DNA of 37,300 nt. Origin: Acidimicrobiaceae bacterium (lineage in GTDB: Bacteria > Actinomycetota > Acidimicrobiia > Acidimicrobiales > Palsa-688). How positions within the stretch are numbered: the first letter of the stretch is position 1; every line of letters starts with the position of its first letter. The position numbers were made by a program, and so were the translations under genes. A model generated the notes under the pieces. It did no database searches, was not told the DNA's origin, and saw only the letters and a program-made list of their open reading frames with translations. The stretch is from assembly GCA_009785715.1 (NCBI GenBank), contig WQVT01000001.1:1-37300 (forward strand), written 5' to 3'. Below are positions 7,431 to 33,800 of this stretch, in pieces.

Positions 7431-10400
7431 ATGTCCTACTTCCAGGGATCGCTCAGCCAGCTTGCGGTCTATCCGTACGCGCTCACGCCCGCCGAGATTC
7501 TGGCGCACTACGCCGCCGCTTACGCCGACGCGATCCCGGTCTACCCCTCGATCGCGAATCACATCGTGACCATGCCCAACGGCACCACGCTCATGGGCGG
7601 TCACCCGACGTGGACCGACGGCACCTTCCGGCTGCGCTGGCAGGTTCCCGCGATCGGCAACGGCGCGTTCACGGTGCAGTTCGGGTCCGCCGAGGTAGAG
7701 GTCTCGGTCAACGCGGGAGTGCTCACCTCTTCGGTGGGGGTCTCGGGATCGTGGGCGGTGACCGGAAGCGCGCCGGTCACGCCGGGCAACTGGTACTGGG
7801 TTTACCTGACCAACCAGGGCACGCTGTCGAGCTACTACATCGTGGCCGACGAGAACGGCGCGCCTGGCCCGACCAAGCTCGTCTCCGGCTCCGGCGTCTT
7901 CACCAACCGCCCGCCGCGCCCGATCCTGCTCAGCGTCAGCCAGGGGCCGATCCTCTTCGGCGGCAACTACCCGCAGGTCTGCACCGTGTACCCGGCCGTG
8001 CTGCCAGCGGACTGGCTGATGGTCAACGCGCCGGGCTGGAACGTACTGGAGCCCGCCTTCTGCTGGGACACGACGACCGCCCAGTCGGGCAGCCGGTCGC
8101 TCTCGATCCAGTCGGGCATCATCGCCGACCCCACGTGGTGGGTGACGCAGTCGCCGGACGAGTGGAACTCGATCCCGGCCACCGCCTCGACACCCTACTC
8201 GTTCACCGGCTGGATCAAGACGATGGGCAACGAGACGATGGGTCCGATCTACCAGTCGGAGGTGCTCAGCACGCCGGGCATCCGCGCCTACTACCGGCTC
8301 GACGACCATGCCGCCACCGCCATCGCCGACCTCGGCAGCATGGGCGCGAACGGATCGGGCACCGGGGCCATGCTCACCGACCAGGCTGGGCTCATCGCGG
8401 CCGACCCCAACAGCGCGTTCCTGCTCCAGGGCGGCATCATCTCCTGGCCGCAGGCTGCGCTGGGCGACTCGTGGTCATGGGAGTGCTGGTTCCAGGCACC
8501 GACCACGCTGCCGCTCGGCGGCTTCTACGAGCTACTGCGCTGGGGCAATACGCGGATCGCGCTTGACGAGAACAACCGCCTCGACTTCGGGCCGCTGAAG
8601 TCACCGAACTCGGTCGCTGACGGGAACCCGCATCACCTCGTGGTCAGCGTCTCGCCGACCGCCATCTGGATGTACCTCGACGGCGGGCCGATCGGCTACA
8701 CCGATCTCACACCGACGCCGCTGCCGCTGACGGTGCCGGTCACCTACCCCGAGGTGGTGCAGGACATCCCGGGGCTCGCGCACTACTGGCGACTCGGCGG
8801 TGGCGGTCCGTGGCAGGACATCATCGGAGGCATAGCCGCGACCGCCGTCGGAGCCGGGACAGTGACGCCTGTGCCGGGCTTGGTGGGGGACGACGACGGA
8901 GCGATCAGGACGACGTCGACCTCCGGTGTCGGAACCGCGTCGCTGCTGCCTGCGTACACGACGTGGTCGTGGGCCTTCCTCTTCAAGATCGCCACCACCG
9001 ACATGACGATGACGTCCAACTACGTCCTCTACACGGGCGCGTCCGGCGTCATCGGCCCGCGCGTTTACCTGTCGCTCGATGTCGCCACGGGACGCCGGTA
9101 CCTCTACTTCTACGGCACAAACCTCAGCGGAGTGAGCGCATACACCACGCTCTGGAGCGGCGACAAGGACTACAACGACGGCCAGACACATCACGTTGTG
9201 GTCACCTGGGACGGCGTGACGGCAAGCCTCTACAGTGACGGCGTCCTTCGCCAATCGCGCGTCGCTGTGGACCCGAACCAGATGATCATGCCCGCCGGTC
9301 GGCTGGTCCGCATGGGCTGCTACACCGCCAGCAGCGGACAGGAATGGGATGGGATCGTGGACGAGGTCTCTTGGTGGGATCGCGCGCTCGATCAGTCGGA
9401 GGTCACCGCGCTGTATCAGGCGATCCCCAAGACGCCCGTCGACCGCCTCATCAGCGGCCTGGCGGGCGATGTCGAGCACGACATCACGGTCCAGGCCTTC
9501 AACGCGTCAGGCGGCGGTCCGGCCGCGACCGCCAGTACCGCACCGTGGGGCGCGCTCTACGCCACCAGCGTGACCGCCGGGTACGGCATCCCGGGCACAA
9601 GCTGGCTGAAGCTCGACGAGGTGGCCTTCTACACCGCCGCACTAACGGCGGATCAGGTCGGCGCGCACTGGGTCGCCGGGTCGTCGAGCGACGCGCTCGG
9701 CCCCCAGGGTGCCGGGTGGTACGAGGTATGGGAGTGGGATGCCCTCGGCAACATGGTGGCCCGCCACCTGAGCGCCGGTCCGCCCGCCGATGCGCTGCTC
9801 GGCTGGGGACAAGTGACGGTCAACTTCACCACCCAGCCCAACGCCACCTACTTCTCGATCCGCACCGTGCTGGTCGCCACCGGCACGGTCTGGTTCGACA
9901 ATGTCCTGGTCGCGCCCGACGTCTCCTCTGGCGCGGTGACGAACGTGACCGATGGGGTGCGGGTGATGGGGCCACCGGCCATGTCGGTCTTCCACCTCGC
10001 GGGGAACAACGGGGCGGATGTGGTGCCGCTCTTCTTCGGCACCTACAGCCGCTCCCAGGAGGGCGGGCCTCAGGTCACCACCAACATGGACGTGACGCAG
10101 ATTCCGATCTTCAACCTGGCGCAGCCGATCACCCGCACCGGAGCGATCAAGTGGAGGCAGGTGCAGTTCAACGCCATGTTCCTCGCGCCGGAGGCGATGG
10201 CGCAGTACACCGCGCTCCGGAACACGGCCTACGCCAGCAACACCCCGATCTTCTTCCGCGATCAGTCGGGACGACAGGCGCTGGTGCAGCAGTCGCCGCA
10301 GGGCCACCAGGTGCAGCACGAGCCCAGCAACTACCGGCGGCGCTACGACCTTCAGAACACATACCTGGAGGTCCCGAACACGGTCTCGCCGTACACGCCA

Positions 10401-12617: not shown

Positions 12618-13417
12618 TCCAGGTCGACGAGGGCCAGTTGGACGGGTACTTGACGACGTGGCTGGAGAACAAGTACCCGCACCTCTTGAACTCGTGGTTC
12701 CAGGCCAAGATCGTCACCGTCACCTCCACCTCGCAGCCGTTCACCGTGACGCTGCAGAAGCTCGGGGAGCCGTCCAGCGATGGGGCCGAGTACGTGGTCG
12801 CTCCCAGCGGCTACTTCCCGCAGGTCGGCGACGCGGTCGAGTGCTGCTGGCGCGACCGCAACACCGCGTACGTGATGTGGCCGCTGGGCCAAAGCGCGGC
12901 CGTGCCCGCCATGGTCATGCTCCAGAACACGCAACTCAACGGAACCACCCGGATACGCATCCCGCCGCAAGGGGTTCTGCCCCAGTCGTTCAACGACTTC
13001 CGCATCGTGATCCGGGCGGTCGGCCCCGGCACAGGAACCTTCTCGGACGTCTCGATCATGTTCAATGACGACAACGGAAGCCGCTACGCCCAGGGCTGGA
13101 TGTACGCCACCTCGGGCAACTCCACGTCCGGCAGCGGAGTCTTCAACCAGGGCGGGCTTCAGCCGATCCTCCAACTGCCCGCCACGACGCAGAACATGTG
13201 CCACGGCTTCATCGACATCCCCTACGCGACTGCGCCCCAGGCACGCCTCGGGCGGGTGGCGTTCGGGTACTCCTACCACATCGAAGGCTGGAGCAGTTCC
13301 AGCAACCTCTCCGAGTTACATCGCACGGTGTGGTGGTACAGCAACGCCCCGATTCGCACGATCACCCTCCAGAGCCAGGCTCTCACCGGCTCGGTCCGGG
13401 CCTACGGCATCACCTGA
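12614..13417 (+). CDS. Putative tail tip / receptor-binding protein (267 aa)
   Basis: ATGA overlap with the HNH stop, high GC3, and it is the last gene of the rightward structural block. The function is inferred from position only. Confidence 0.6.
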   Translation: MIQVDEGQLDGYLTTWLENKYPHLLNSWFQAKIVTVTSTSQPFTVTLQKLGEPSSDGAEYVVAPSGYFPQVGDAVECCWRDRNTAYVMWPLGQSAAVPAMVMLQNTQLNGTTRIRIPPQGVLPQSFNDFRIVIRAVGPGTGTFSDVSIMFNDDNGSRYAQGWMYATSGNSTSGSGVFNQGGLQPILQLPATTQNMCHGFIDIPYATAPQARLGRVAFGYSYHIEGWSSSSNLSELHRTVWWYSNAPIRTITLQSQALTGSVRAYGIT

Positions 13418-16714: not shown

Positions 16715-16947
16715 GCCGCCACTCCAGCCAGATGCTTGCGGTGCTCGCCCTCCATCCGATCCATCACGAGGGCCAGCCGGACGATCGCCGATGCCGTCCC
16801 CTCACACACCTCGCCGTTGATCTGCCAGAGCCCCTTGTCGTAGAGCACGACCTCGACCCTGGTCACGAACCCGGCGTCCTTCTTGGTCCGCTGGAAGGTC
16901 TCGCCCATCCGGCGCACCGCCGCGTAGCGGCTCTTGAGTTTGGTCAT
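16711..16947 (-). CDS. Small protein (78 aa), first gene of the leftward cassette, apparently leaderless
   Basis: ORF 16711-17025. I prefer ATG 16947 (MTKLKSRYAAV), which lies 7 nt downstream of the TAGGAT -10 box. Its position next to a divergent promoter suggests a regulator, but no HTH was recognised. Confidence 0.55.
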   Translation of the reverse strand: MTKLKSRYAAVRRMGETFQRTKKDAGFVTRVEVVLYDKGLWQINGEVCEGTASAIVRLALVMDRMEGEHRKHLAGVAA

Positions 16948-16954
16948 GCCATCT

Positions 16955-16981
16955 ATCCTACCCAGTTGCGTGCGACCTAAA
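16955..16981 (-). promoter_or_regulatory. Leftward promoter (conserved family)
   Basis: On the minus strand: TTTAGG (16981-16976), a 15-nt spacer ending ACTGGG, TAGGAT (16960-16955), AG. Confidence 0.5.
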
Positions 16982-16990
16982 CATCGGGCG

Positions 16991-17017
16991 TTTAACTTGC
17001 GGCAGACAGGGTACAAT
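16991..17017 (+). promoter_or_regulatory. Rightward early promoter (conserved family), leaderless start
   Basis: TTTAAC (16991-16996), spacer TTGCGGCAGACAGGG, TACAAT (17012-17017), AG, then ATG 17024 six nt after the -10 box. 25 of 29 positions are identical to the leftward promoter at 26145-26173. Confidence 0.6.
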
Positions 17018-17023
17018 AGGGCC

Positions 17024-17212
17024 ATGACGCAGTTCCACTACTTCGCCGAGTCACTCGGGCAGGGCCGAGCGATCCTGCGGCGCGACGTCGTCCACCACGG
17101 ACGGCTGGTCGAGTCGCACACGATCGGATCGCCTGCGCCGATCGCCTCCGTGAAGGCGTTCGCGGCTCGGATGTCACCCCCGTCCACCCCCATGAAGGAG
17201 CGAACCTCATGA
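17024..17212 (+). CDS. Small protein (62 aa), first gene of the rightward early operon
   Basis: ATG 17024 follows the promoter directly. Its stop overlaps the next ATG (ATGA at 17209). Confidence 0.55.
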   Translation: MTQFHYFAESLGQGRAILRRDVVHHGRLVESHTIGSPAPIASVKAFAARMSPPSTPMKERTS

Positions 17213-18295: not shown

Positions 18296-18328
18296 CGGGG
18301 CGGCCCCTTCGGGGGGTCGCCCTTTTTT
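18296..18328 (+). terminator. Strong intrinsic terminator
   Basis: GGGGCGGCCCC, loop TTCG, GGGGGTCGCCC, followed by TTTTTT (18323-18328). Confidence 0.8.
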
Positions 18329-18344
18329 CAGGCCCGGATCGGGT

Positions 18345-18371
18345 TTTAACCGCTGAGAGACTGGCTAGAAT
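18345..18371 (+). promoter_or_regulatory. Rightward promoter (conserved family) restarting the early operon
   Basis: TTTAAC (18345-18350), a 15-nt spacer ending AGACTGGC, TAGAAT (18366-18371), AG. A 4-codon mini-ORF ATGGAGGTAAATTGA (18380-18394) ends 1 nt before ATG 18396. Confidence 0.55.
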
Positions 18372-18395
18372 AGGAGGACATGGAGGTAAATTGAA

Positions 18396-24275: not shown

Positions 24276-24505
24276 ACACCGAGCGCATCACCCGACTGGA
24301 GGTGATCATCCGCACCCTGGTCTTTCGTCAGCCACACCACTGGGCGAACGCGCTCGCCTGGAGGTACGCTGAGCCGCCCGGGCCAGACTTCGGCAAGGCG
24401 CTGCGCATCGACCGGCATCGCCTGCTCTGGCGTCTCAATGACTGGCTGGCTGATCGCTACATCCACCAGTACGTGACGTGGCGTTACCAGCGGAGGACGT
24501 CATGA
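24272..24505 (+). CDS. Hypothetical protein (77 aa)
   Basis: ATGA overlap at 24272. Confidence 0.6.
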   Translation: MNTERITRLEVIIRTLVFRQPHHWANALAWRYAEPPGPDFGKALRIDRHRLLWRLNDWLADRYIHQYVTWRYQRRTS

Positions 24506-24702
24506 GCGGGGACATCCTGGACCGGCTGGAGTGGCGAATAGCGTTGTCGCGGGCGGAGTTCGACGCCCTGATCGCGGTGGCGCGGGCGGCGCGGGAGTTC
24601 TCCCAGGCAACCAGGGGTCGAACACAGCAGGACTGGGAAGCCAGAGACCACCTGACCGAGGCTCTGGACGCGCTCGACGCGCTGGGAGGGGGCGATGGCT
24701 GA
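24502..24702 (+). CDS. Hypothetical protein (66 aa), paralogous at its N-terminus to the next gene
   Basis: ATGA overlap at 24502. MSGDILDRLEWRIALSRAEFDALIAVARAAREF aligns with MAEDILDRLERGLEV...EKRALIAVARAARAT of the next gene. Confidence 0.6.
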   Translation: MSGDILDRLEWRIALSRAEFDALIAVARAAREFSQATRGRTQQDWEARDHLTEALDALDALGGGDG

Positions 24703-24997
24703 GGACATCCTGGACCGGCTGGAGCGCGGCCTGGAAGTCGGGCTGGTCTGGACGGGTCCAGAGAAGCGTGCCCTGATCGCCGTGGCGCGAGCGGCGCGCG
24801 CGACGTTGGCAGCGAGCGTCGAGGAACGCCCCTCGCATAATGACCGCCCGGTCTGCCGCATCTGCTACGTCGAGACGGCGAGTGACGGGAGCGGGATTCA
24901 CCACACCTGGCCGTTTGGGACGGACATCGGGGACGACACGCAGTGCCCGATCCCCGCGCTGACAGAGGCCCTGTACGCGCTGGTGGGTGCGTCGTGA
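24695..24997 (+). CDS. Hypothetical protein (100 aa), tandem paralogue of the previous gene with a Cys/His extension
   Basis: ATG 24695 gives an 8-nt overlap. It shares the N-terminal DILDRLE...ALIAVARAAR block. Confidence 0.6.
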   Translation: MAEDILDRLERGLEVGLVWTGPEKRALIAVARAARATLAASVEERPSHNDRPVCRICYVETASDGSGIHHTWPFGTDIGDDTQCPIPALTEALYALVGAS

Positions 24998-25308
24998 GGT
25001 ACGTCTGCCGCGAGGAAGGTTGCTTCGCCGAGGCCATCCGCCGGACGTCGGAGGGCATCTGCCCGCTCCACGAGCACGCGCTGCGTCGACACGGCCCGGA
25101 CGCCTACTGCGATCGCATCGGGATCGGCTTCGCCGTCACCAGCGACAACCCTGACCCCGACTTCTACGGCCCCGGCCCGCTGCTCACCTGGAGCACGCTC
25201 CCTCTTTTCCCCGGCGCTGGCTACGTCTGGGACGTTGATTCGCCCACGCGCCCCGATTCGCACCTCCTGCCCAAGGCGCTCTGCGCCGAATGCTCCGAAC
25301 GCCGATGA
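24994..25308 (+). CDS. Hypothetical Cys-rich protein (104 aa)
   Basis: GTGA overlap at 24994. Cysteines occur in CREEGC...CPLHEH...C...CAEC. Confidence 0.55.
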   Translation: MRYVCREEGCFAEAIRRTSEGICPLHEHALRRHGPDAYCDRIGIGFAVTSDNPDPDFYGPGPLLTWSTLPLFPGAGYVWDVDSPTRPDSHLLPKALCAECSERR

Positions 25309-25571
25309 GACTGCGCAAGGAGAAGCCGAAGCCACCGATGACGATCAGCATCCACTCGTCTCTCGACGGGGTGGAGACCAAGCTCGAAGGCATGCACTCG
25401 TTCGTGGAGATGGGGCAGGCGCTCGGGCTGGAGGACGCCGATCTCGATGAGTTCCGCTCCTACGACGAGCGGATGAAGCGGCTGCTGCGTTCGCGCTGGC
25501 GCAAGGCGCTTGATCGGGTGGGGGCGGTATGGCGCAGGGTGCTCGTTCGGGTGTACCGGCCGGACGAGTGA
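25305..25571 (+). CDS. Hypothetical protein (88 aa), last gene before the leftward insert
   Basis: ATGA overlap at 25305. High GC3. Confidence 0.55.
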   Translation: MRLRKEKPKPPMTISIHSSLDGVETKLEGMHSFVEMGQALGLEDADLDEFRSYDERMKRLLRSRWRKALDRVGAVWRRVLVRVYRPDE

Positions 25572-25617
25572 GGGCGCGGCGTCGGAAACCACGCCCTCGG
25601 CGAGGGGAAGTGTGGTC

Positions 25618-25743
25618 TTACGGTTGCTGAGGCTGGGGTGGCTGCTGTCCGCCGGGCATGTCGCGCTCGACGTCCTGCTCCACGTCCTGCTCGATCTCTT
25701 GCTCGAACCCGCCGCCGCCACCCGGCTGCTGCTGTTCGGTCAC
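25618..25743 (-). CDS. 41-aa acidic, Gln/Pro-rich peptide (MTEQQQPGGGGGFEQEIEQDVEQDVERDMPGGQQPPQPQQP)
   Basis: GTG 25743 lies 6 nt after a perfect AGGAGG on the minus strand (ggaAGGAGGtacgcGTG). It is convergent with the early operon. Confidence 0.5.
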   Translation of the reverse strand: MTEQQQPGGGGGFEQEIEQDVEQDVERDMPGGQQPPQPQQP

Positions 25744-26140
25744 GCGTACCTCCTTCCGAGGGAAAGAGCGGCCCGCCCGGGTCGGACCGCTCGCGGGGTG
25801 GAGAGTGGCTCCGCCCACGATGGTCTCACGAAGCGGATGATGACGGGGCGAAGAGAGGTGGCCGGGGGGCCTTGCGTGCGCCCCCCGCTTTCGCCGGAAC
25901 TCCGGGTCTTAGTCGCTCTCGGTGCCTCGTCGCCTCGTTGGCGCTTCGCCGTCCCAGTGGAGTGCTTACCTGCGACTCGTGCCGGACCACCTCGGCGGCC
26001 CCGCTGCTATCCCTTCCCCGGGCCGATCCCGGCATCTGCTGCGACTGGGCCGCGCTGGCGACGCCCGAGGTTCCCAACCCCGTCCCGCTCTCCCGGCCGT
26101 GGGTGTTGGTCAGGTTTCGCTGGTGGGAACGTCGCTCAGC
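25744..26140 (-). ncRNA. Candidate ~400-nt structured leader or ncRNA transcribed leftward from the 26147-26173 promoter
   Basis: No convincing ORF. Many strong local hairpins are present, e.g. CGGGGGGC-GCACGCAAG-GCCCCCCG, CCGG-AGUU-CCGG, CCGGG-AUCGG-CCCGG, and GAGCGG...CCGCUC followed by UUU. A CCUC...GAGG pairing could occlude the SD of the 41-aa ORF. No known RNA family recognised. Confidence 0.3.
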
Positions 26141-26146
26141 AGAGCT

Positions 26147-26173
26147 ATTGTACCCAGTCTGCGGCAGGCTAAA
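26147..26173 (-). promoter_or_regulatory. Leftward promoter, near-identical copy of the 16991-17019 early promoter
   Basis: The minus strand reads TTTAGC-CTGCCGCAGACTGGG-TACAAT-AG, with 25 of 29 positions matching the other copy. Confidence 0.55.
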
Positions 26174-26175
26174 CT
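26148..26175 (+). promoter_or_regulatory. Possible rightward promoter fully interleaved with the leftward one, giving a leaderless start for HNH copy 3
   Basis: TTGTAC (26148-26153), a 16-nt spacer, TAAACT (26170-26175), then ATG 26182 six nt downstream. There is no SD upstream of this ATG. Confidence 0.35.
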
Positions 26176-26181
26176 TCGGTC

Positions 26182-26613
26182 ATGCCGACCCGCATTTACA
26201 ACCGTGGCGTCCCGCTTCTGGATCGGTGGGCCGCTCACGTGATCGCCGAGCCGTCCGGATGCTGGGGCTGGCTTGGCGCGCACACCCCGTACGGCTACGG
26301 CCATCTGAATGTCGGCGGCAGCCGGTACGACAGCGCCTACCGAGTGGGCTATCGGCTCTTGATCGGTGAGGTCCCGGAGGGGCTTGAGCTTGATCACCTC
26401 TGCCGCAATCCGGGCTGCGTGAATCCGACCCATCTGGAGCCTGTCACCCATCGAGTCAACGTCTTTCGCGGTAGTAACCGGAGGATTCAGGCCGCGATCT
26501 CGGGTACCTGCATCAGGGGTCACGGCCCGGACAATTTCGCGTACCGCCCGGATGGCCGCTATCACTACTGCCGAGCCTGTAGACGTCTCTACCGCAAGGA
26601 CAGGCGGAGATGA
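26182..26613 (+). CDS. HNH homing-type endonuclease (copy 3 of 3)
   Basis: Motifs are CWGWLGA...YGYGH...AYRVGY...LDHLCRNPGCVNPTHLEPVTHRVN, followed by CIRGH...CRAC. Confidence 0.85.
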   Translation: MPTRIYNRGVPLLDRWAAHVIAEPSGCWGWLGAHTPYGYGHLNVGGSRYDSAYRVGYRLLIGEVPEGLELDHLCRNPGCVNPTHLEPVTHRVNVFRGSNRRIQAAISGTCIRGHGPDNFAYRPDGRYHYCRACRRLYRKDRRR

Positions 26614-26966
26614 GCCCGCTGCCCGGCATGTCCGAGAAGGAATTCATGCGGACGTTGGTCGGCGATCGACGCCGCCCGGGGATGATCCACATGCTCGGTG
26701 GCCTATGCACCCATTTCAGACCCGGGTATTCCGCCAAGGGGATGGTGACGCCGATCGAAGGCGATGCCGGGTTCCCGGATACATGTATCGTCACGAAGTC
26801 AAATCGGTTGCTCTTCAGGGAATTGAAGGTCGGCCGCAACCGGCTGCGGCCGGAGCAGCAGATGTGGTTGGAGCGGCTGCAGGCGGCGGGAGCCGATGCC
26901 AAGGTGTGGACCGATCAAGACCTCGCGAGCGGGCTCATCGAGCGGGAGTTGATGGCTCCGCCGTAG
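26610..26966 (+). CDS. VRR-NUC domain nuclease
   Basis: ATGA overlap at 26610. The stretch GFPDTCIVTKSNRLLFRELKVGRNRLRPEQQMWLERLQAAGADAKVW contains a PD...E-x-K core and matches the VRR-NUC pattern. Confidence 0.7.
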   Translation: MSPLPGMSEKEFMRTLVGDRRRPGMIHMLGGLCTHFRPGYSAKGMVTPIEGDAGFPDTCIVTKSNRLLFRELKVGRNRLRPEQQMWLERLQAAGADAKVWTDQDLASGLIERELMAPP

Positions 26967-27013
26967 CGTGAAGCACCTGGGCAACTTGCGCCGCGCGCAA
27001 TGTCCGCCCTAAC

Positions 27014-28207
27014 ATGACGGCCAAACGGGCGCACGTGCTCCCGATGTCGGCGAACGAGGGTAGAGGAGCAGGCGCAGTGGCTGCGGAAGCACCGCCGTCC
27101 GCACCGGTCAAGGTGCATATCCGGGACTTGACGATCGACCCGGCGATCCAAATCCGGAAGGCCAATCGCGAGCAGGCGATCCTGCGCTACATGGACGCCA
27201 TCGACGTGCTGCCGCCGGTCGAGGCGATCCGCACGCCTGAGGGCAAGCTGATCCTCTACGACGGCTTCCAGCGCACTGCAGCGCACCAGCGGCTGGGGCT
27301 GGACGACATCCGGGTGCTGATCGAGGACGGCACCCGCGAAGAGGCGCTGGAGCGGGCGATCGTCGCCAATCTCCGCCACGGCGAGCCGCTCGATCAGGAC
27401 GAGCGCGACGAGGCGATACGCCGCCTGCACCAACTCCACCCGCAGGCGGGCTCCCGGCTGATCGCGACCAAGATGATGCACTCGGTGAGCGCCAGCACGG
27501 TCGAGCGGTTGCTGGACGCGGACGAGGTCCGGCAGGCGGTGCCGTTCAAGTGGCTCACCCACATCTCGCACGGCGCGCTCGCCGACATCTCGGCCGCACC
27601 CAAGGCGAACTGGTCTGCACTGGCTTGCGCTTACGACCAGAACAAATGGACAAGACCGCAGCTACAGCAAGCGGTTAAGGAGGTGGGCGACGAATCGGTG
27701 CCTGCCGCCCACCGCCAGGCGCTGCTCGACGGAACCGCCCAACCGGGGGACCATCTCCGGACAGAAAAGGCAGAAGAGGAGAAAACTGAGCAGCCCGCCG
27801 CCCCTGGTGCGGTTGGGCAACTCACTGTGGTGAGCGAGCAGGCGGAAGAGGAGCCGGAAGAGGAGCCGGAGGAGGACGAGTACGTCGGTGATGAGCCGGG
27901 CTACGACCCGGTCGGCACCGACGTCGGCGAGCGGCTGATCGCGGTCTCGCCGTTCGTGGTCATCCCGGTGCGCATCCCGTCCGGTCGGCCGCGTCAGCGT
28001 GGGAACCGGACTTACCAGCGAGAGCGGGTGACGGTGCAGCGCACGATCCCGATCTCGGTCACCGATGAGGTGCTGGACGGTCACGGCAACCCGAACGACA
28101 TGGAGTCGGCGGGCTGGGCAATGCTCTGCCGGGAGGTGTACCGGCAACTCTGGCGCTCGCGTCCGGCGATCTGGCCGCCGGATGGACCGGGGTGGGGCGA
28201 GACGTGA
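27014..28207 (+). CDS. ParB/Srx N-terminal-domain protein (397 aa) with an acidic linker
   Basis: The stretch IRDLTIDPAIQIR...LPPVEAIRTPEGKLILYDGFQRTAAHQRLG...ANLRHGEPL is ParB-N-like. An EEEPEEEPEEDE tract follows. An alternative start GTG 27077 lies 7 nt after GAGGAG. Confidence 0.7.
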   Translation: MTAKRAHVLPMSANEGRGAGAVAAEAPPSAPVKVHIRDLTIDPAIQIRKANREQAILRYMDAIDVLPPVEAIRTPEGKLILYDGFQRTAAHQRLGLDDIRVLIEDGTREEALERAIVANLRHGEPLDQDERDEAIRRLHQLHPQAGSRLIATKMMHSVSASTVERLLDADEVRQAVPFKWLTHISHGALADISAAPKANWSALACAYDQNKWTRPQLQQAVKEVGDESVPAAHRQALLDGTAQPGDHLRTEKAEEEKTEQPAAPGAVGQLTVVSEQAEEEPEEEPEEDEYVGDEPGYDPVGTDVGERLIAVSPFVVIPVRIPSGRPRQRGNRTYQRERVTVQRTIPISVTDEVLDGHGNPNDMESAGWAMLCREVYRQLWRSRPAIWPPDGPGWGET

Positions 28208-28220
28208 GGACATCGCCGCC

Positions 28221-28616
28221 GTGAAGCGCTGGGTGCTGGCGGTGGGCGATCGGGTACGGGTTTGGCGGGTGCCGGAGGACGATCCCTGGCTGCGGCCGGT
28301 GCTGGGGCGGATGGGGGTGGTCAGGGAGCGCGGGAAGCTCGATGCGCGCGGCTATGTTCGAGCGCCCTGGTACGTGGTGCTGGACATCGAGGGCCGCGAG
28401 ATCACGTTGCTGGAGTCGGAGTGCGAGCCGGTGGTGGAGGCCAGGGATGACGCTGGAGAAGGACAAGTTCAAGGAGCAGTTCCGCGACGCGGTCATGCAC
28501 GAGGTGCCGGAGGGGGAGCCGGACTTCCGGATCATCGCCTGGTACGAGCGCGGCGGGATCAACTTCGACCTGCGCACGCAGGACTGCGGAGCGCCGCACC
28601 TTCTGACGGCCGCTGA
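28221..28616 (+). CDS. Hypothetical protein; the 5' ~75 codons look coding and the 3' part probably does not
   Basis: GTG 28221 (VKRWVLAVGDRVRVWRVPEDDPW...). After nt ~28447 third-position GC collapses in this frame, but no stop occurs until 28616. Confidence 0.45.
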   Translation: MKRWVLAVGDRVRVWRVPEDDPWLRPVLGRMGVVRERGKLDARGYVRAPWYVVLDIEGREITLLESECEPVVEARDDAGEGQVQGAVPRRGHARGAGGGAGLPDHRLVRARRDQLRPAHAGLRSAAPSDGR

Positions 28617-31634: not shown

Positions 31635-31830
31635 CTTCGACTGGGCGGCCTTGTCGCCGATCGGGTGGTGCATCTTCCTGATCGGGGTGATGGCGGTCGT
31701 GGTAGTCCTGGTGCATGACTCTGATCCCGAGCGGCGGTGGGCGGTGGAGGGGTTGCTGTGGCTGTCGGTTCGGTTGAGCGAGGCGGCGTCGGCCACGCAA
31801 GCAGCCGCCCGAGCTATTGGCAGCAGGTAG
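31600..31830 (+). CDS. Possible small membrane protein (start uncertain)
   Basis: The ORF contains a hydrophobic helix (IGWCIFLIGVMAVVVVLV). It overlaps the putative 5' end of the terminase ORF, so only one of the two readings may be real in 31737-31830. Confidence 0.3.
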   Translation: MVFYRWGGLRDDFDWAALSPIGWCIFLIGVMAVVVVLVHDSDPERRWAVEGLLWLSVRLSEAASATQAAARAIGSR

Positions 31831-33800
31831 CTGCGGGCTGCGCCGGAGACTTCCTGCAGTACCTCGTGTTCGTGATGGGTGTGATGCCTGCCGAGCACCA
31901 CCTCGTGATCTGCGAGCGGCTGCTGTACGGCACGCCGATGGAGTTGATCCTTGGTCCGCCGGACTCGGGGAAGTGCGTGGCCGGGAGTGACACCATCCCG
32001 CTAGCGGATGGGCGTCGGAAGCTGGCGGCTGAATTGGTGGGCACCGACTTCTCGCTGCTGACCGTGACAGAGGCGGGTATCGAGCCGGTTCGGGCGCACG
32101 CGGAGTGGAACCGCCTGGAGCCGGTCTACGAGGTGATGACCGACTCCGGTCGCCGCATCCGGCGTAACGCCCAGCACCCGCTCTGGTGCGCGGACACGCA
32201 GCGCGACGGATTGCGGGTGCGGCGCACATGGCAGGCGGTTGGGAAGCACGGGTCGGGCCGGATGCTCCTGAAGCGGGAGGGCTGGTGGGCAGTGGCGGAC
32301 ATCCGTCCGGGTGATCTGGTCGCAGTCGCAGCGGAGCTTCCGTATCGCCCCTGGTGCAGCACACTCACCGATGCCGAGGTGGCGTTTCTCGCCTACATGA
32401 TCGCGGAAGGGACGGTCGGCTCGGGGACACTGCGCCTCACGCAGAAGCCGGGCGCGGTGCTTGACGATATGAGGGAGGTCGCGCGATCGGTGGGCTGCGA
32501 TCTGCGGCCGGTCTCCGCGATTGACTACACGGTGGCCGGAATCGGAAACCGACAGGGCCAGGCGAAGCGGCGGAATCCGGGCAAGGAACTGCTGCGGGCT
32601 CACGGCGTACTGGGCAGGCACTCGCGAGAGAAGCGGGTGCCGGACGCCGTCTGGGGGCTGCCGGACCGGCAGGTGGCGCTGTTCTTGAACCGGCTCTACG
32701 CCTGCGACGGATCGGCGCTCGTCAACTGGAAGGTGCGTTGCCCGGTGGGGCTGGTGACTTTCACCTCGGCCTCACGCGGGCTGGTCGAGGATGTTCAGGA
32801 GTTACTGCTCCGGTTCGGCGTGTCAAGTCGCATCCGGCATCGGGAGGCGCAGAACGCGTGGACGGTGGACATCCAGCGGGCGGCCGATCTGCTGGCGTTC
32901 GCGACCAAGATCGGGGCGCTCGGCAAAGAGGCGCGGATCGACGAGGTCCGGCGGTTCGCCTCGACGCGCCGCAATCTCCAGCGGTGGCGACGGGCCGGGT
33001 TGCCGGACGGTCTTCAGTGGGAGCGTGTGCGGTCGGTCACGTACACGGGCGATGAGCGGACGGTGGCGATCGAGGTGCCAGGTCACCAGACGTTCCTGAG
33101 CACGTTCTGGGAGCACAACACCACGATCATGGTGGGCTACATCACCTGGACTTTGGGGCGGAATCCGAACTACCGCTGGCTGGTCGCGAGTGAGGGTGCA
33201 GTGGGGATCGCGACGGTGACGGTGACGCAGGTGGCGGAGACGATCGCGGCGAACGAGCGTTACCAGATGGTGTTCGGGGCGTTGCGTGATCCCCGAGGTC
33301 GGGGTGAGTGGTCGTCGCAGTCGATCAGGTTGCGCACGTATCTCTCGACGCGGGAGGCGGCGCGGCTGCATCAGCCGCCGAGTCCACCGGCACCGCCGTG
33401 GCTGCAGTTGCCGGAGAGGAGCAAGCCGCCGATGGCGACGATGATCAGTCCGCGCCGGGGTCGGGATGCGGCGCTGGCGCATCCCAACGTGAAGGCGGTG
33501 GGGTGGCGGTCGGGGTACACGGGTGTTCGGTGTGAGGGGATCGTGTGTGACGACCTGGTGTCGGACCGATCGTCGCGTTCGGAGGCGATGACGGACGCGA
33601 TCCACTCGACGCTGCACCAGAAGCTGTTGGCGCGGTTGACGGGTCAGCAGCAGCGGGTGGTGGTGTTGGGTCAGCGGTGGGCACCGAGGGACCTGTACGG
33701 GCGGCTTTTGGAGTCGTCGACGGTGTCGTTCAACAGCAACCCCAACAACGAGGGGTTGGAGGTCTTGGAGGGGGTGGAGGAGGAGCCAGGGCTGGATTGA
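31737..33800 (+). CDS. terL: Terminase large subunit, ATPase part, interrupted by an intein; no nuclease domain recognisable
   Basis: The exteins read ...FLQYLVFVMGVMPAEHHLVICERLL...LILGPPDSGK | TTIMVGYITW... (Walker A GPPDSGKT restored after splicing). Later motifs are GIVCDDLVSD (Walker B-like) and VVVLGQRWAPRDLYGRLL (RWHxxDL-type coupling motif). The ORF stops 27 codons after that motif. The start codon is uncertain between 31737 and ~31830. Confidence 0.75.
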   Translation: MGGGGVAVAVGSVERGGVGHASSRPSYWQQVAAGCAGDFLQYLVFVMGVMPAEHHLVICERLLYGTPMELILGPPDSGKCVAGSDTIPLADGRRKLAAELVGTDFSLLTVTEAGIEPVRAHAEWNRLEPVYEVMTDSGRRIRRNAQHPLWCADTQRDGLRVRRTWQAVGKHGSGRMLLKREGWWAVADIRPGDLVAVAAELPYRPWCSTLTDAEVAFLAYMIAEGTVGSGTLRLTQKPGAVLDDMREVARSVGCDLRPVSAIDYTVAGIGNRQGQAKRRNPGKELLRAHGVLGRHSREKRVPDAVWGLPDRQVALFLNRLYACDGSALVNWKVRCPVGLVTFTSASRGLVEDVQELLLRFGVSSRIRHREAQNAWTVDIQRAADLLAFATKIGALGKEARIDEVRRFASTRRNLQRWRRAGLPDGLQWERVRSVTYTGDERTVAIEVPGHQTFLSTFWEHNTTIMVGYITWTLGRNPNYRWLVASEGAVGIATVTVTQVAETIAANERYQMVFGALRDPRGRGEWSSQSIRLRTYLSTREAARLHQPPSPPAPPWLQLPERSKPPMATMISPRRGRDAALAHPNVKAVGWRSGYTGVRCEGIVCDDLVSDRSSRSEAMTDAIHSTLHQKLLARLTGQQQRVVVLGQRWAPRDLYGRLLESSTVSFNSNPNNEGLEVLEGVEEEPGLD
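31974..33119 (+). mobile_element. Intein (382 aa) with a LAGLIDADG homing endonuclease, inserted in the TerL P-loop
   Basis: It begins with Cys (CVAGSDTIPLADG) directly after GPPDSGK. It ends ...VAIEVPGHQTFLSTFWEHN, followed by a Thr +1 nucleophile. The two LAGLIDADG blocks are FLAYMIAEGTVG and FLNRLYACDGSA. Confidence 0.85.

Follow-up and report, generated by a model that had tools for sequence, protein, structure and literature searches.

The 610-bp gap at positions 25572-26181 is probably a moron-like accessory cassette oriented against a rightward operon, in which the product under selection is a small protein rather than an RNA. The window is the whole stretch of DNA that was analyzed and is 37,300 nucleotides long. 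Within it, the gap separates a rightward gene of 88/93 amino acids, which stops at 25571, from an HNH gene that starts with ATG at 26182. On the minus strand, the gap contains a predicted promoter (P26k), a predicted untranslated leader, and orf41, the gene for a 41-residue acidic peptide. As it is the largest non-coding stretch of an otherwise densely packed gene block, the leader may be kept for a reason. An earlier, sequence-only reading of this DNA had described a rightward operon broken by a leftward unit, a copied promoter, divergent promoters that interleave, and the acidic peptide. This architecture is supported, and the evidence for the promoters and the peptide is now stronger than a reading of the letters could provide.

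The same reading saw no credible rightward ORF in the gap, and this is borne out; the long plus-strand ORFs have no matches in Pfam, PHROG, or NCBIfam. The 88/93-aa protein encoded upstream of the gap is an ORFan. The GC content of the gap is ~0.69-0.70, compared with 0.65-0.70 in the adjoining kilobases, and that of the phage is 67%. GC content, Shine-Dalgarno sequences, and the names of HNH homologs suggest an actinobacterial host. ARAGORN finds no tRNA or tmRNA genes. An origin, iteron, or parS site is rejected; the gap has no significant repeats, and the palindrome TCACGTGA is present once only. A Rho-utilisation-like C-rich region and GC skew were dropped as indicators of the transcribed strand. 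Skew does not discriminate here because a true plus-strand gene at 25060-25299 has a stronger reversed skew. Across the window, AGGAGG followed by a start codon occurs 6 times, and roughly 4 occurrences are expected on an estimate made here from base composition, so this signal alone is weak evidence for a gene.

The orf41 peptide gene

orf41 occupies 25618..25743 on the minus strand, and starts with GTG. Its product is an acidic peptide of 41 aa with much Gln, Pro, and Gly (VTEQQQPGGGGGFEQEIEQDVEQDVERDMPGGQQPPQPQQP). The Shine-Dalgarno sequence AAGGAGGT is located at 25748..25755 on the same strand, with its AGGAGG core at 25754-25749 and a 5-nt spacer to the GTG at 25743. This GTG-initiated ORF and its AGGAGG had been picked out from the sequence, and they prove to belong to a real, conserved gene with a homolog on another locus, L017. 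The codon-model score of orf41 is gene-like, at +0.27 to +0.37 bits/codon. Its sole homolog is P0126 on L017, found at E 2.5e-5 among 1.8 billion proteins and sharing 73-76% identity. The alignment covers 41 codons, with 18 identical pairs, 12 synonymous differences, and 11 non-synonymous ones; the nucleotide differences at the first, second, and third codon positions number 6/5/21. L017 also keeps the AGGAGG-N5-GTG arrangement (AGGAGG-AAGGC-GTG, 344-357), in frame with the called ATG. In sister contigs, a T-run indel changes the orf41 stop from TAA to TAG and leaves the length of the ORF unchanged. With purifying selection, preserved translation signals, and genome-like codon usage, orf41 is, as judged from these comparisons, a real protein gene in a family with two known members. 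The peptide alignment and a degenerate DNA pattern give no match in metagenome, viral, and genome collections; the pattern does match the fetched loci.

The two peptides keep a hydrophobic residue at each fourth position (F/L, I, V, V, M/L) and vary at the acidic ones. An AlphaFold2 model places a helix at residues 13-28 (pLDDT ~70-76). The core of the peptide is predicted to be an acidic amphipathic helix of 16-17 residues, flanked by disordered Gln/Gly/Pro tails.

Downstream of orf41 is a hairpin at 25570..25598 with a 10-bp stem, a 9-nt loop, and no U-tract. It was detected as inverted repeat I8 and in the minimum-energy fold of the leftward RNA, and it sits between the stops of the convergent rightward 88-aa gene (25571) and orf41 (25618). 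A G.U pair in the minus-strand RNA corresponds to a C.A mismatch in the plus-strand RNA. The hairpin probably serves as a shared bidirectional terminator. In L017, a hairpin with TTTT after it lies at the corresponding place. The peptide gene of L017, like orf41, is antisense to both neighbors, which show coding periodicity. No TANNNT promoter is visible in the 640 nt of L017, so its 5'UTR could also be long.

Predicted promoters and the HNH/VRR-NUC module

P26k is located at 26144..26174 on the minus strand (GTTTAGC-N7-AGACTGGGTACAATAG) and is recognized by family membership. A leftward near-copy of the main early promoter had been proposed here, and its elements are in place: a -35 hexamer TTTAGC at 26173-26168, a 15-nt spacer, and a -10 hexamer TACAAT at 26152-26147. 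The predicted transcription start site (TSS) is ~26140. P26k is a near-copy of the promoters at 16990-17020 (+) and 18344-18374 (+), and the three strong sites align. A weaker fourth site is found at 16982-16952 (-). The weight-matrix scores of the strong sites are 47.3, 44.9, and 43.3 bits, and P26k, at 44.9 bits, is level with the other two; the fourth site scores 17.6 bits. The 16-mer promoter motif has 3 matches vs 0.03 expected by chance, and zero exact matches in IMG/VR or GTDB genomes. By these matches, the three strong copies and the weak one make up a phage-specific family of predicted promoters. P26k holds the sole usable minus-strand TANNNT for orf41 in the gap. The second minus-strand TANNNT (TAGCCT, 26171) overlaps the -35 of P26k itself.

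The rightward promoter predicted for the HNH gene spans 26148..26184 on the plus strand and is composed of TTGTAC at 26148-26153, N16, TAAACT at 26170-26175, 6 nt, and the ATG at 26182. These hexamers had been described as interleaved with those of P26k, and they are; the -10 ends 6 nt before the HNH ATG. In actinobacterial leaderless genes, transcription starts on the start codon itself, and a TANNNT -10 is centered 7-12 bp upstream of this TSS (Cortes et al. 2013, PMC3898074). The HNH gene conforms to this rule at the level of sequence: there is no Shine-Dalgarno ahead of its ATG, and its TANNNT is placed for a predicted TSS at the start codon. The TANNNT-N6-ATG geometry occurs in 5/90 genes of the phage group, always with a spacing of 6 nt, vs ~0.3 expected. 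This set includes the 50%-identical HNH homolog on L015. The gene at P17k (TACAAT-N6-ATG) has a geometry equal to that of the HNH promoter.

The HNH endonuclease gene occupies 26182-26613 on the plus strand (Pfam HNH_3, 3.9e-9; top PHROG an HNH endonuclease family, 1.8e-37). It is overlapped by a VRR-NUC nuclease gene at 26610-26966 on the same strand (Pfam VRR_NUC, 2.7e-5). Together they form a module (26182..26966, +) that diverges from P26k. L011, L012, and L015 have an HNH-VRR_NUC pair as well, and the relative L007 has VRR-NUC and no HNH gene. The three nearest HNH homologs inspected share 50-55% identity. An HNH-associated RNA or cassette is rejected, as L011, L012, and L015 have no such unit upstream of HNH. 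L013 and L014 have a ~608-nt gap with a called minus-strand 66-aa ORF, a layout that looks identical to the one studied here. The likeness is a coincidence: the DNA is unrelated and holds uncalled plus-strand genes (for a 69-aa protein and a 105-aa HNH-like protein).

The relatives L007 to L010 keep the YAcAr, VRR-NUC, 376-aa, 159-aa, and DUF6610 genes and lack the gap, orf41, and HNH. In the 376-aa protein, the nearest relatives share 57-58% identity. The unit is therefore present in one phage and absent between conserved flanks of its relatives, as in morons. A clean insertion of a single cassette is not demonstrated, because the entire YAcAr to VRR-NUC interval differs between relatives. 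Searches of INPHARED with megablast and blastn matched only the HNH core, IMG/VR searches with the flanking proteins gave no match, and neither did a plasmid blastn.

The leader between P26k and orf41

The predicted 5' untranslated leader spans 25744..26140 on the minus strand, is ~397 nt long with 70% GC, and is non-coding. The median 5'UTR in Mycobacterium tuberculosis is 55 nt (PMC3898074), and the leader is far longer. The sequence-only reading had considered it a riboswitch-like or protein-binding RNA or an independent ncRNA. This proposal is not upheld: the leader has no Rfam match, no excess folding, and no homologous leader. Rfam 15, which covers riboswitches, leaders, sRNAs, RNase P, tmRNA, 6S, GOLLD/ROOL, group I/II introns, HEARO, and others, gives 0 matches at the gathering score in the whole window. 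A scan of 25400-26300 at E<=10 with lax filters returns six weak matches, all far below thresholds and of the wrong family kinds. The best is CRISPR-DR29 (20.8 bits vs a gathering score of 39, E 0.13). These matches, which include miRNAs and Transposase-2, are rejected as sub-threshold and at chance level.

Folding stability was tested beyond dinucleotide-matched composition, globally and in 120-nt windows. Compared with shuffled sequence, the global z-score is -0.63 for the minus strand of the leader, -0.34 for the plus strand, and +0.55 for the full transcript. In the 120-nt windows, z on the leader minus strand averages -0.19 and is -1.92 at its lowest; phage-wide control windows average -0.27 (SD 1.22, 5% quantile -2.27). 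Excess stability over shuffled sequence is thus absent on either strand, globally and in the 120-nt windows. The many strong hairpins noted earlier do exist, but they are no more than 70% GC gives by chance. The 8-bp G/C stem is also present, though at 25863-25870/25880-25887 and not at 25872-25899. CCGGAACTCCGG is located at 25894-25905. The window has just two minus-strand G-quadruplex motifs, and one of them is found here.

Two small structures lie near the Shine-Dalgarno. The stem followed by UUU that had been placed just 5' of it is found as a 10-bp stem at 25792-25763. Its U-tract is three U residues only, and the terminator scan makes no call there. The second is a hairpin at 25751..25767 on the minus strand (UCUUUCC-CUC-GGAAGGA, -5.8 kcal/mol), which pairs part of the Shine-Dalgarno in the predicted fold. 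L017 has an analogous hairpin, UCUCC-CCA-GGAGG. The suggested masking of the Shine-Dalgarno is predicted with a pairing probability of 0.79, but 8/43 control genes score as high or higher; for L017 the probability is 0.83, and 6/43 controls are at least equal. The pairing is not exceptional in either locus, given these control counts.

The seven copies are near-identical and differ by two indels only. A 1-nt C-run indel, polymorphic among otherwise identical copies and carried by L002 and L003, shortens the strongest helix of the leader (the G/C hairpin 25863-25887) and is uncompensated. Neither conservation nor covariation in related phages is found in public data, where the comparison covers these seven copies and one diverged peptide gene. 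The DNA upstream of the L017 peptide gene is unrelated to the leader and is mostly filled by an opposite-strand gene. Exact searches of IMG/VR with two segments of the leader (22 and 23 nt) give zero matches, and nhmmer finds no match in any other locus or in the remainder of the window. The leader shows no sign of being a special structured RNA; it is non-conserved and compositionally flat.

Competing explanations and known systems

In the accessory-cassette reading, host RNA polymerase would start at P26k with a TSS at ~26140, copy ~397 nt of non-conserved untranslated leader, and continue into orf41. Translation would begin from the strong Shine-Dalgarno (AAGGAGGU) at the GTG 5 nt further on. 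Transcription would end at the hairpin 25598-25570, common to the convergent upstream gene. The 41-aa peptide would most likely bind a host or phage protein. Because the P26k hexamers interleave with the leaderless promoter of HNH/VRR-NUC, polymerase bound at P26k would exclude the HNH promoter and vice versa. Leftward transcription would also meet early-operon read-through, and by this collision P26k firing would damp or time HNH expression. The leader would most simply be a non-functional spacer or recombination scar, or may be decayed older sequence, and may be retained because it separates the two units.

That the leader is a functional structured RNA, either cis-regulatory (riboswitch-like, an attenuator, or protein-binding) or an ncRNA of ~375 nt ending at 25792-25763, is quite unlikely. 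Its appeal is the unusual length of the non-coding stretch, given how compact the phage is, and its place downstream of a strong family promoter. It also draws on the 10-bp hairpin with UUU just 5' of the Shine-Dalgarno, the small hairpin that pairs it, the pyrimidine tract adjoining it in both peptide loci, and the G-quadruplex motif. These points are opposed by the Rfam scans, which give no match at the gathering score and nothing near threshold at E<=10, by fold z-scores of leader, transcript, and windows that stay within controls, and by Shine-Dalgarno pairing inside the control-gene range. Moreover, the C-run indel cuts the strongest helix without compensation, the leader is unlike the sequence upstream of the homologous peptide gene or anything else searched, and the three-U tract draws no call from the terminator scan. 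Public data hold no diverged copy of the leader for conservation or covariation, which leaves an outside chance for a lineage-specific functional RNA of a kind undescribed in actinobacterial phages. Such an RNA would arise from an early-promoter copy that also shuts off the HNH promoter. It could be a regulatory 5'UTR or attenuator gating peptide translation, or a processed early ncRNA (immunity-type or decoy).

The leader could instead be a decayed gene, either the first of a longer leftward operon or a rightward one, with a 105-codon minus frame (26140-25826) as its fossil or, less likely, as a live protein gene of unusual composition. This account is improbable. No stop interrupts the frame between the predicted TSS and 25826, GC3-like periodicity and codon scores of +0.17 to +0.31 bits/codon are seen in the minus frame at 25968-26111, and G is abundant on the minus strand at 25920-26099, as it is on transcribed strands in other parts of the phage. 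Over the whole leader, however, the codon-model score is negative in all six frames and GC is flat at ~0.70 at every codon position. The 105-codon frame has no usable start: TTG 26077 and ATG 26035 have no Shine-Dalgarno, and the TSS itself carries neither ATG nor GTG. Its R/S/G/A/P-rich translation has no match in Pfam, PHROG, NCBIfam, or PADLOC and no phage tblastn match, and gene callers skip it on all five contigs with the full gap. The C-run indel falls within it, and the chance of a 105-codon open frame at this GC is ~0.1 per frame by an estimate made here. A protein gene in the leader is rejected on such grounds (no family or phage matches, no starts, flat composition) for an 83-aa ORF, the 105-codon frame, and plus-strand ORFs of 220 and 243 aa. 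Descent from the divergent gene of L017 is rejected as well; tblastn finds no similarity. A last account makes leftward transcription itself the function, as an interference or insulator module with the peptide secondary. P26k would occlude the HNH promoter and collide or form duplex RNA with early-operon read-through, and the early operon would be separated in time from HNH, VRR-NUC, and the replication genes. The hexamers of the two promoters do physically overlap, P26k is as near the family consensus as the main promoters, and the HNH promoter is a weak one. Rightward transcription could plausibly read through into the gap, because the plus-strand form of the 25570-25598 hairpin has the C.A mismatch and no U-tract. 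The account is nonetheless doubtful. The peptide is under purifying selection and its strong Shine-Dalgarno is kept in two unrelated contexts, which argues that it is not a by-product. Furthermore, HNH-VRR-NUC modules of other phages have no opposing unit, and promoter occlusion does not require 400 nt.

A moron is a single-gene accessory cassette that brings a promoter and a terminator of its own and is inserted between genes that lie side by side in related phages (PMC4378225). The orf41 unit resembles morons in having a single small coding region between predicted P26k and a hairpin, in a slot filled differently in related phages. It is predicted to be transcribed independently of the surrounding operon, here against it, and a homologous peptide cassette is found in an unrelated context on L017. 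Both of its own signals are predicted, P26k through family membership and the downstream hairpin without a U-tract. It differs from morons in base composition, as the classic hallmark of deviant GC is absent (~69-70% in the gap vs 67% in the phage). P26k copies the phage's own early promoter family and is not foreign, ~400 nt of non-coding leader separate it from orf41, the insertion has no clean limits in the variable YAcAr to VRR-NUC interval, and no integrase is seen. The HNH_3 gene resembles free-standing phage homing endonucleases; it lies in a variable slot, is absent in the nearest relatives, and has its own predicted promoter. The HNH homolog of L015 is also leaderless, with the consensus TATAAT. 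The leftward peptide unit does not belong to a conserved HNH cassette, and the three closest HNH homologs lack such a unit upstream.

Overlapping or face-to-face promoter pairs that work through transcriptional interference include coliphage 186 pR/pL and Tn10 pIN/pOUT. As in these pairs, opposite promoters occupy the same DNA, with P26k strong and the HNH promoter weak. The present pair differs in being divergent, with interleaved -35 and -10 hexamers recognized from sequence alone, and its weak member is predicted to yield a leaderless mRNA. Leaders that sequester the Shine-Dalgarno include riboswitches and RNA thermometers of the fourU or ROSE type, and the Rfam scans covered models for them. 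The orf41 leader is similar in its length, its small downstream gene, and the UCUUUCC tract that pairs the Shine-Dalgarno in a short hairpin. Unlike them, it has no Rfam match or conserved aptamer-like element, its pairing is within controls, and it is not conserved with its gene. Actinobacterial leaderless units (PMC3898074) are matched by the HNH gene (TAAACT-N6-ATG), the P17k gene (TACAAT-N6-ATG), and the gene at 16947 (TAGGAT-N7-ATG), and three genes of L007 and the HNH homolog of L015 also fit the rule. orf41 contrasts with these genes, its leader being very long and its Shine-Dalgarno strong.

The finding is modest: a fairly ordinary accessory cassette with one unexplained long leader. 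Should it turn out to be functional, the leader would represent a large regulatory RNA of a sort rarely seen in actinobacterial phages. Strong hairpins in DNA of 70% GC are, by themselves, no evidence of a structured RNA. What is new is a two-member family of peptides with a predicted acidic amphipathic helix, carried in reverse-oriented cassettes of high-GC phages, together with the documentation of a phage-specific promoter family. Predicted leaderless promoters (TANNNT-N6-ATG) appear to be frequent in this uncultured and very isolated phage lineage. The strong leftward promoter interleaved with the weak leaderless promoter of a nuclease gene would offer a compact, testable example of promoter competition.

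The gap and its overlapping promoters

The interval 25572-26181 separates two rightward genes, one of 88 or 93 aa (stop at 25571) and the HNH gene (ATG at 26182), and is the longest non-coding interval of the called gene block. As the sequence-only reading held, it contains no credible rightward ORF, and Pfam, PHROG and NCBIfam return zero matches. The window is 65-70% GC, and its phage genes include ERF, DUF932, PDDEXK, YAcAr, HNH, VRR-NUC, ParB-like, DUF6610 and an intein-containing protein. No close relative was found among deposited phages or in IMG/VR. Six metagenomic contigs (L001-L006) encode an identical HNH protein in the same gene order, and their gap DNA equals the window's except for two homopolymer indels. 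They therefore confirm the sequence and add no comparative information. The next-largest apparent gap, 28208-28446 (239 nt), follows the ParB-like gene and holds an uncalled gene. Its plus-strand frame (…VKRWVLAVGDRVRVWRVPEDDPWLRPVLGRMGVV…LLESEC…), overlooked by gene callers on the sister contigs, is clearly homologous to a called 81-aa gene (8553-8798) of the relative phage L007.

The leftward promoter, P26k (26174-26144, minus strand; GTTTAGC-N7-AGACTGGGTACAATAG), lies where it was first placed and is not a chance match. Its entire architecture is common to sites at 16990-17020 (P17k) and 18344-18374 (P18k): a -35-like TTTARC, then 15 nt of spacer in which AGACWGGS is conserved, then the -10 TASAAT with AG after it. 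Three copies of the 16-nt core are present where 0.03 would be expected. By weight matrix the strong sites score 47.3, 44.9 and 43.3 bits, and a fourth, weaker one emerges on the minus strand at 16982-16952, where it stands back-to-back with the 16990 site. None of the family promoters is recovered by a strict sigma-70 scan of the E. coli type. This fits an actinobacterial-type host, where the -10 TANNNT dominates (PMC3898074). TACAAT is the sole minus-strand TANNNT in the gap able to serve the 41-aa peptide gene, orf41; the other, TAGCCT at 26171, overlaps the -35 of P26k itself. Transcription of orf41 from a start within the gap would thus give it a 5'UTR of about 397 nt.

The rightward promoter proposed for the HNH gene is of leaderless type. 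TAAACT ends 6 nt 5' of the ATG and an SD is absent, which fits the actinobacterial leaderless rule (PMC3898074). Recurrence adds to the support for the proposal: in a set of 90 called genes, drawn from this phage, its relatives and phages with HNH homologs, TANNNT stands at leaderless distance in five, all with exactly 6-nt spacing, against ~0.3 expected. The five are this HNH gene, three L007 genes and a 50%-identical HNH homolog on contig L015. P17k has the same geometry ahead of a 62-aa ORF. In L007 the form is TGCTA(A/G)(G/A)AT-N6-ATG (genes at 2402, 6293 and 11568), and the L015 homolog (3001) has the consensus TATAAT-AGATGC-ATG. Leaderless promoters with this exact 6-nt spacing seem to be a general trait of the uncultured phage group. 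The HNH and P26k hexamers do interleave in the sequence; the mutual exclusion of polymerase proposed with it is something we infer.

The region 16947-17026 is a divergent, switch-like promoter region. The weak family promoter (16982-16952, minus strand) places TAGGAT 7 nt ahead of the ATG at 16947, and the strong P17k (16990-17020, plus strand) places TACAAT 6 nt ahead of the ATG at 17024. The -35 elements are back-to-back, with ~8 nt between them, and both genes appear leaderless. The flanking genes yielded no repressor or integrase domain. Between 17 and 30 kb there is only one canonical intrinsic terminator (18297-18323; a 12-bp stem, then TTTTTT), and it closes the short P17k operon directly upstream of P18k.

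The peptide gene orf41

The 41-aa ORF (25743-25618, minus strand) proves to be a real gene, with a homolog, a conserved SD and GTG, and a pattern of purifying selection. An exhaustive phmmer search of 1.84 billion representative proteins with the 66-aa minus-strand ORF finds one relative only, P0126 (E 2.5e-5), encoded on L017, a contig of 640 bp that shares its assembly with L001. The match is restricted to the C-terminal 41-aa part. The start signals are AGGAGG-TACGC-GTG in the window and AGGAGG-AAGGC-GTG in L017, the latter in frame with the called ATG. What the longer ORFs add at the N-terminus is unrelated between the two loci, so the gene is the short GTG-initiated form. The 41 aligned codons comprise 18 identical, 12 synonymous and 11 non-synonymous pairs. 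Differences fall 6/5/21 by codon position, which, on this pairwise comparison, is the signature of purifying selection on the protein.

Both peptides carry, in order, QQQPG..GG, (F/L)EQ(E/D)IE..VEQDVE(R/H)D(M/L) and PGGQQ..QPQQP. The conserved hydrophobic residues recur at every fourth position, with variable acidic residues in between. A helix (residues 13-28, pLDDT ~70-76) flanked by disordered ends is predicted by AlphaFold2. The peptide has no match to families, defence systems or the PDB. A T-run indel (25618-25620; L002, L003 and L005) hits the stop codon exactly, changing TAA to TAG; the length of orf41 is unchanged, and the L017 stop is also TAG.

The L017 gene is antisense to both neighbours, as in the window; these are periodic in the manner of coding sequence (GC3 0.86 and 0.96). 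A hairpin and then TTTT lie 3' of it.

The leader between P26k and orf41

The leader (25744-26140, minus strand; 397 nt) had been read as a structured RNA of ~400 nt, and this claim fails all available tests: Rfam, fold z-scores, sliding windows, SD pairing and helix polymorphism. Rfam gives no match in the entire window at the gathering score, and lax filters over 25400-26300 give sub-threshold chance matches only; the leftward unit belongs to no Rfam family and lacks the generic marks of structured RNA. MFEs agree with those of dinucleotide shuffles: z is -0.63 for the leader and -0.34 for its complementary strand, and the complete leftward transcript gives +0.55. In 120-nt sliding scans the minus strand has a mean z of -0.19 and a minimum of -1.92, and the plus strand reaches -3.15 at 25830-25949; in 136 control windows taken elsewhere in the phage the mean is -0.27 (SD 1.22), the 5% quantile -2.27 and the minimum -5.16. 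The hairpins named earlier do exist, with the G/C stem displaced to 25863-25870/25880-25887, and are expected from 70% GC. The proposed SD-masking hairpin is predicted (UCUUUCC/GGAAGGA, -5.8 kcal/mol, pairing probability 0.79), but equal or higher values are reached by 8 of 43 control genes. The sole polymorphism inside the strongest helix is a base-pair loss without compensation.

A coding role fares no better. Codon-model scores are below zero in all six frames, and GC is ~0.70 at each codon position. Locally, at 25968-26111, a weak coding-like signal follows an open frame of 105 codons on the minus strand; no start codon, SD, homolog or gene call backs this signal, and a polymorphic 1-nt indel falls within the open frame. 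At L017, sequence 5' of the SD resembles the leader at chance level only, and from ~90 nt 5' of the SD an opposite-strand gene occupies the DNA. The entire 640 nt contain no TANNNT, so the promoter is not visible there and a short 5'UTR is not implied. Judged from these two loci, leader sequence or structure does not travel with the peptide gene. We prefer to read the long leader as a non-functional spacer or scar, since no test for function gave a positive result; the power of these tests is low because diverged copies are absent.

A weak Rfam match to CRISPR-DR29 lies at 26049-26078 on the plus strand (20.8 bits, E 0.13; the gathering score is 39). Its 3' 13 nt (CGAGGTTCCCAAC) equal the consensus exactly, but the repeat stem is unable to form, and the match is judged to be chance. 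An anti-CRISPR RNA of the solitary-repeat type was considered here. The 5' part of the leader also contains a G-quadruplex motif, GGGAGAGCGGGACGGGGTTGGG (26094-26070, minus strand); the whole window has two such motifs on the minus strand and six on the plus strand.

Accessory status of the leftward unit

The leftward unit is accessory. For the 376-aa ParB-like protein there are only two non-identical homologs (57-58% identity), whose contigs retain YAcAr, VRR-NUC, the 376-aa protein, a 159-aa protein and DUF6610. They carry two unrelated small genes with VRR-NUC directly after, and HNH, gap and orf41 are absent; across 25200-27100 the relatives have no DNA similarity. The HNH family is large, its nearest member is only 55% identical, and no comparable unit was found upstream of the closest homologs. 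A 608-nt gap in L013 and L014 was rejected as a look-alike: its DNA is unrelated and it contains uncalled genes. In L013 (2389-2912, ahead of the HNH homolog P0008) these are two plus-strand ORFs; one encodes 105 aa with the HNH-type motif CxxC…HH…CxxC, which gives this phage two adjacent HNH-type genes.

L007 has genes with Vut_1 (queuosine-precursor transporter family) and QueF domains (9313-9867 and 12654-13097) close to its ParB_N/DUF6610 gene, a hint of 7-deazaguanine metabolism or DNA modification; both are absent from the window's equivalent position. The palindrome TCACGTGA (26235-26242), which we take to resemble the central core of the canonical parS site, occurs once in the window, within the HNH gene and ~800 nt 5' of the ParB-like gene, probably by chance. 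A 687-aa protein (31737-33800) contains a LAGLIDADG_3 domain (2.3e-17) and weakly matches Intein_splicing. Probably an intein carrying a homing endonuclease interrupts a host protein here, and this endonuclease would be the window's second mobile nuclease besides HNH. Adjacent, overlapping genes at 24478-24997 encode 74- and 100-aa proteins that share an N-terminal DILDRLE motif and an ALIAVARAAR motif; they may be diverged tandem paralogs (BLASTP is weak, 14/30 identical, E 7.8).

From the picture first drawn, the leftward unit, the promoters and the peptide remain and the structured RNA does not. There is strong support for a leftward-pointing family promoter with orf41, a real gene with a strong SD, 397 nt downstream, for a hairpin between convergent genes, and for a leaderless-type HNH promoter overlapping P26k. 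P26k would fire alongside the other family promoters, probably early, and the transcript would run through the leader into orf41 and end at 25598-25570. P26k activity would compete with the HNH promoter and oppose read-through from the early operon, and the peptide would act on a protein partner through its acidic amphipathic helix. A moron is an independently transcribed accessory gene (PMC4378225), and the leftward unit works alike. It is absent in relatives and has, on prediction, its own promoter and terminator, but its composition is not deviant.
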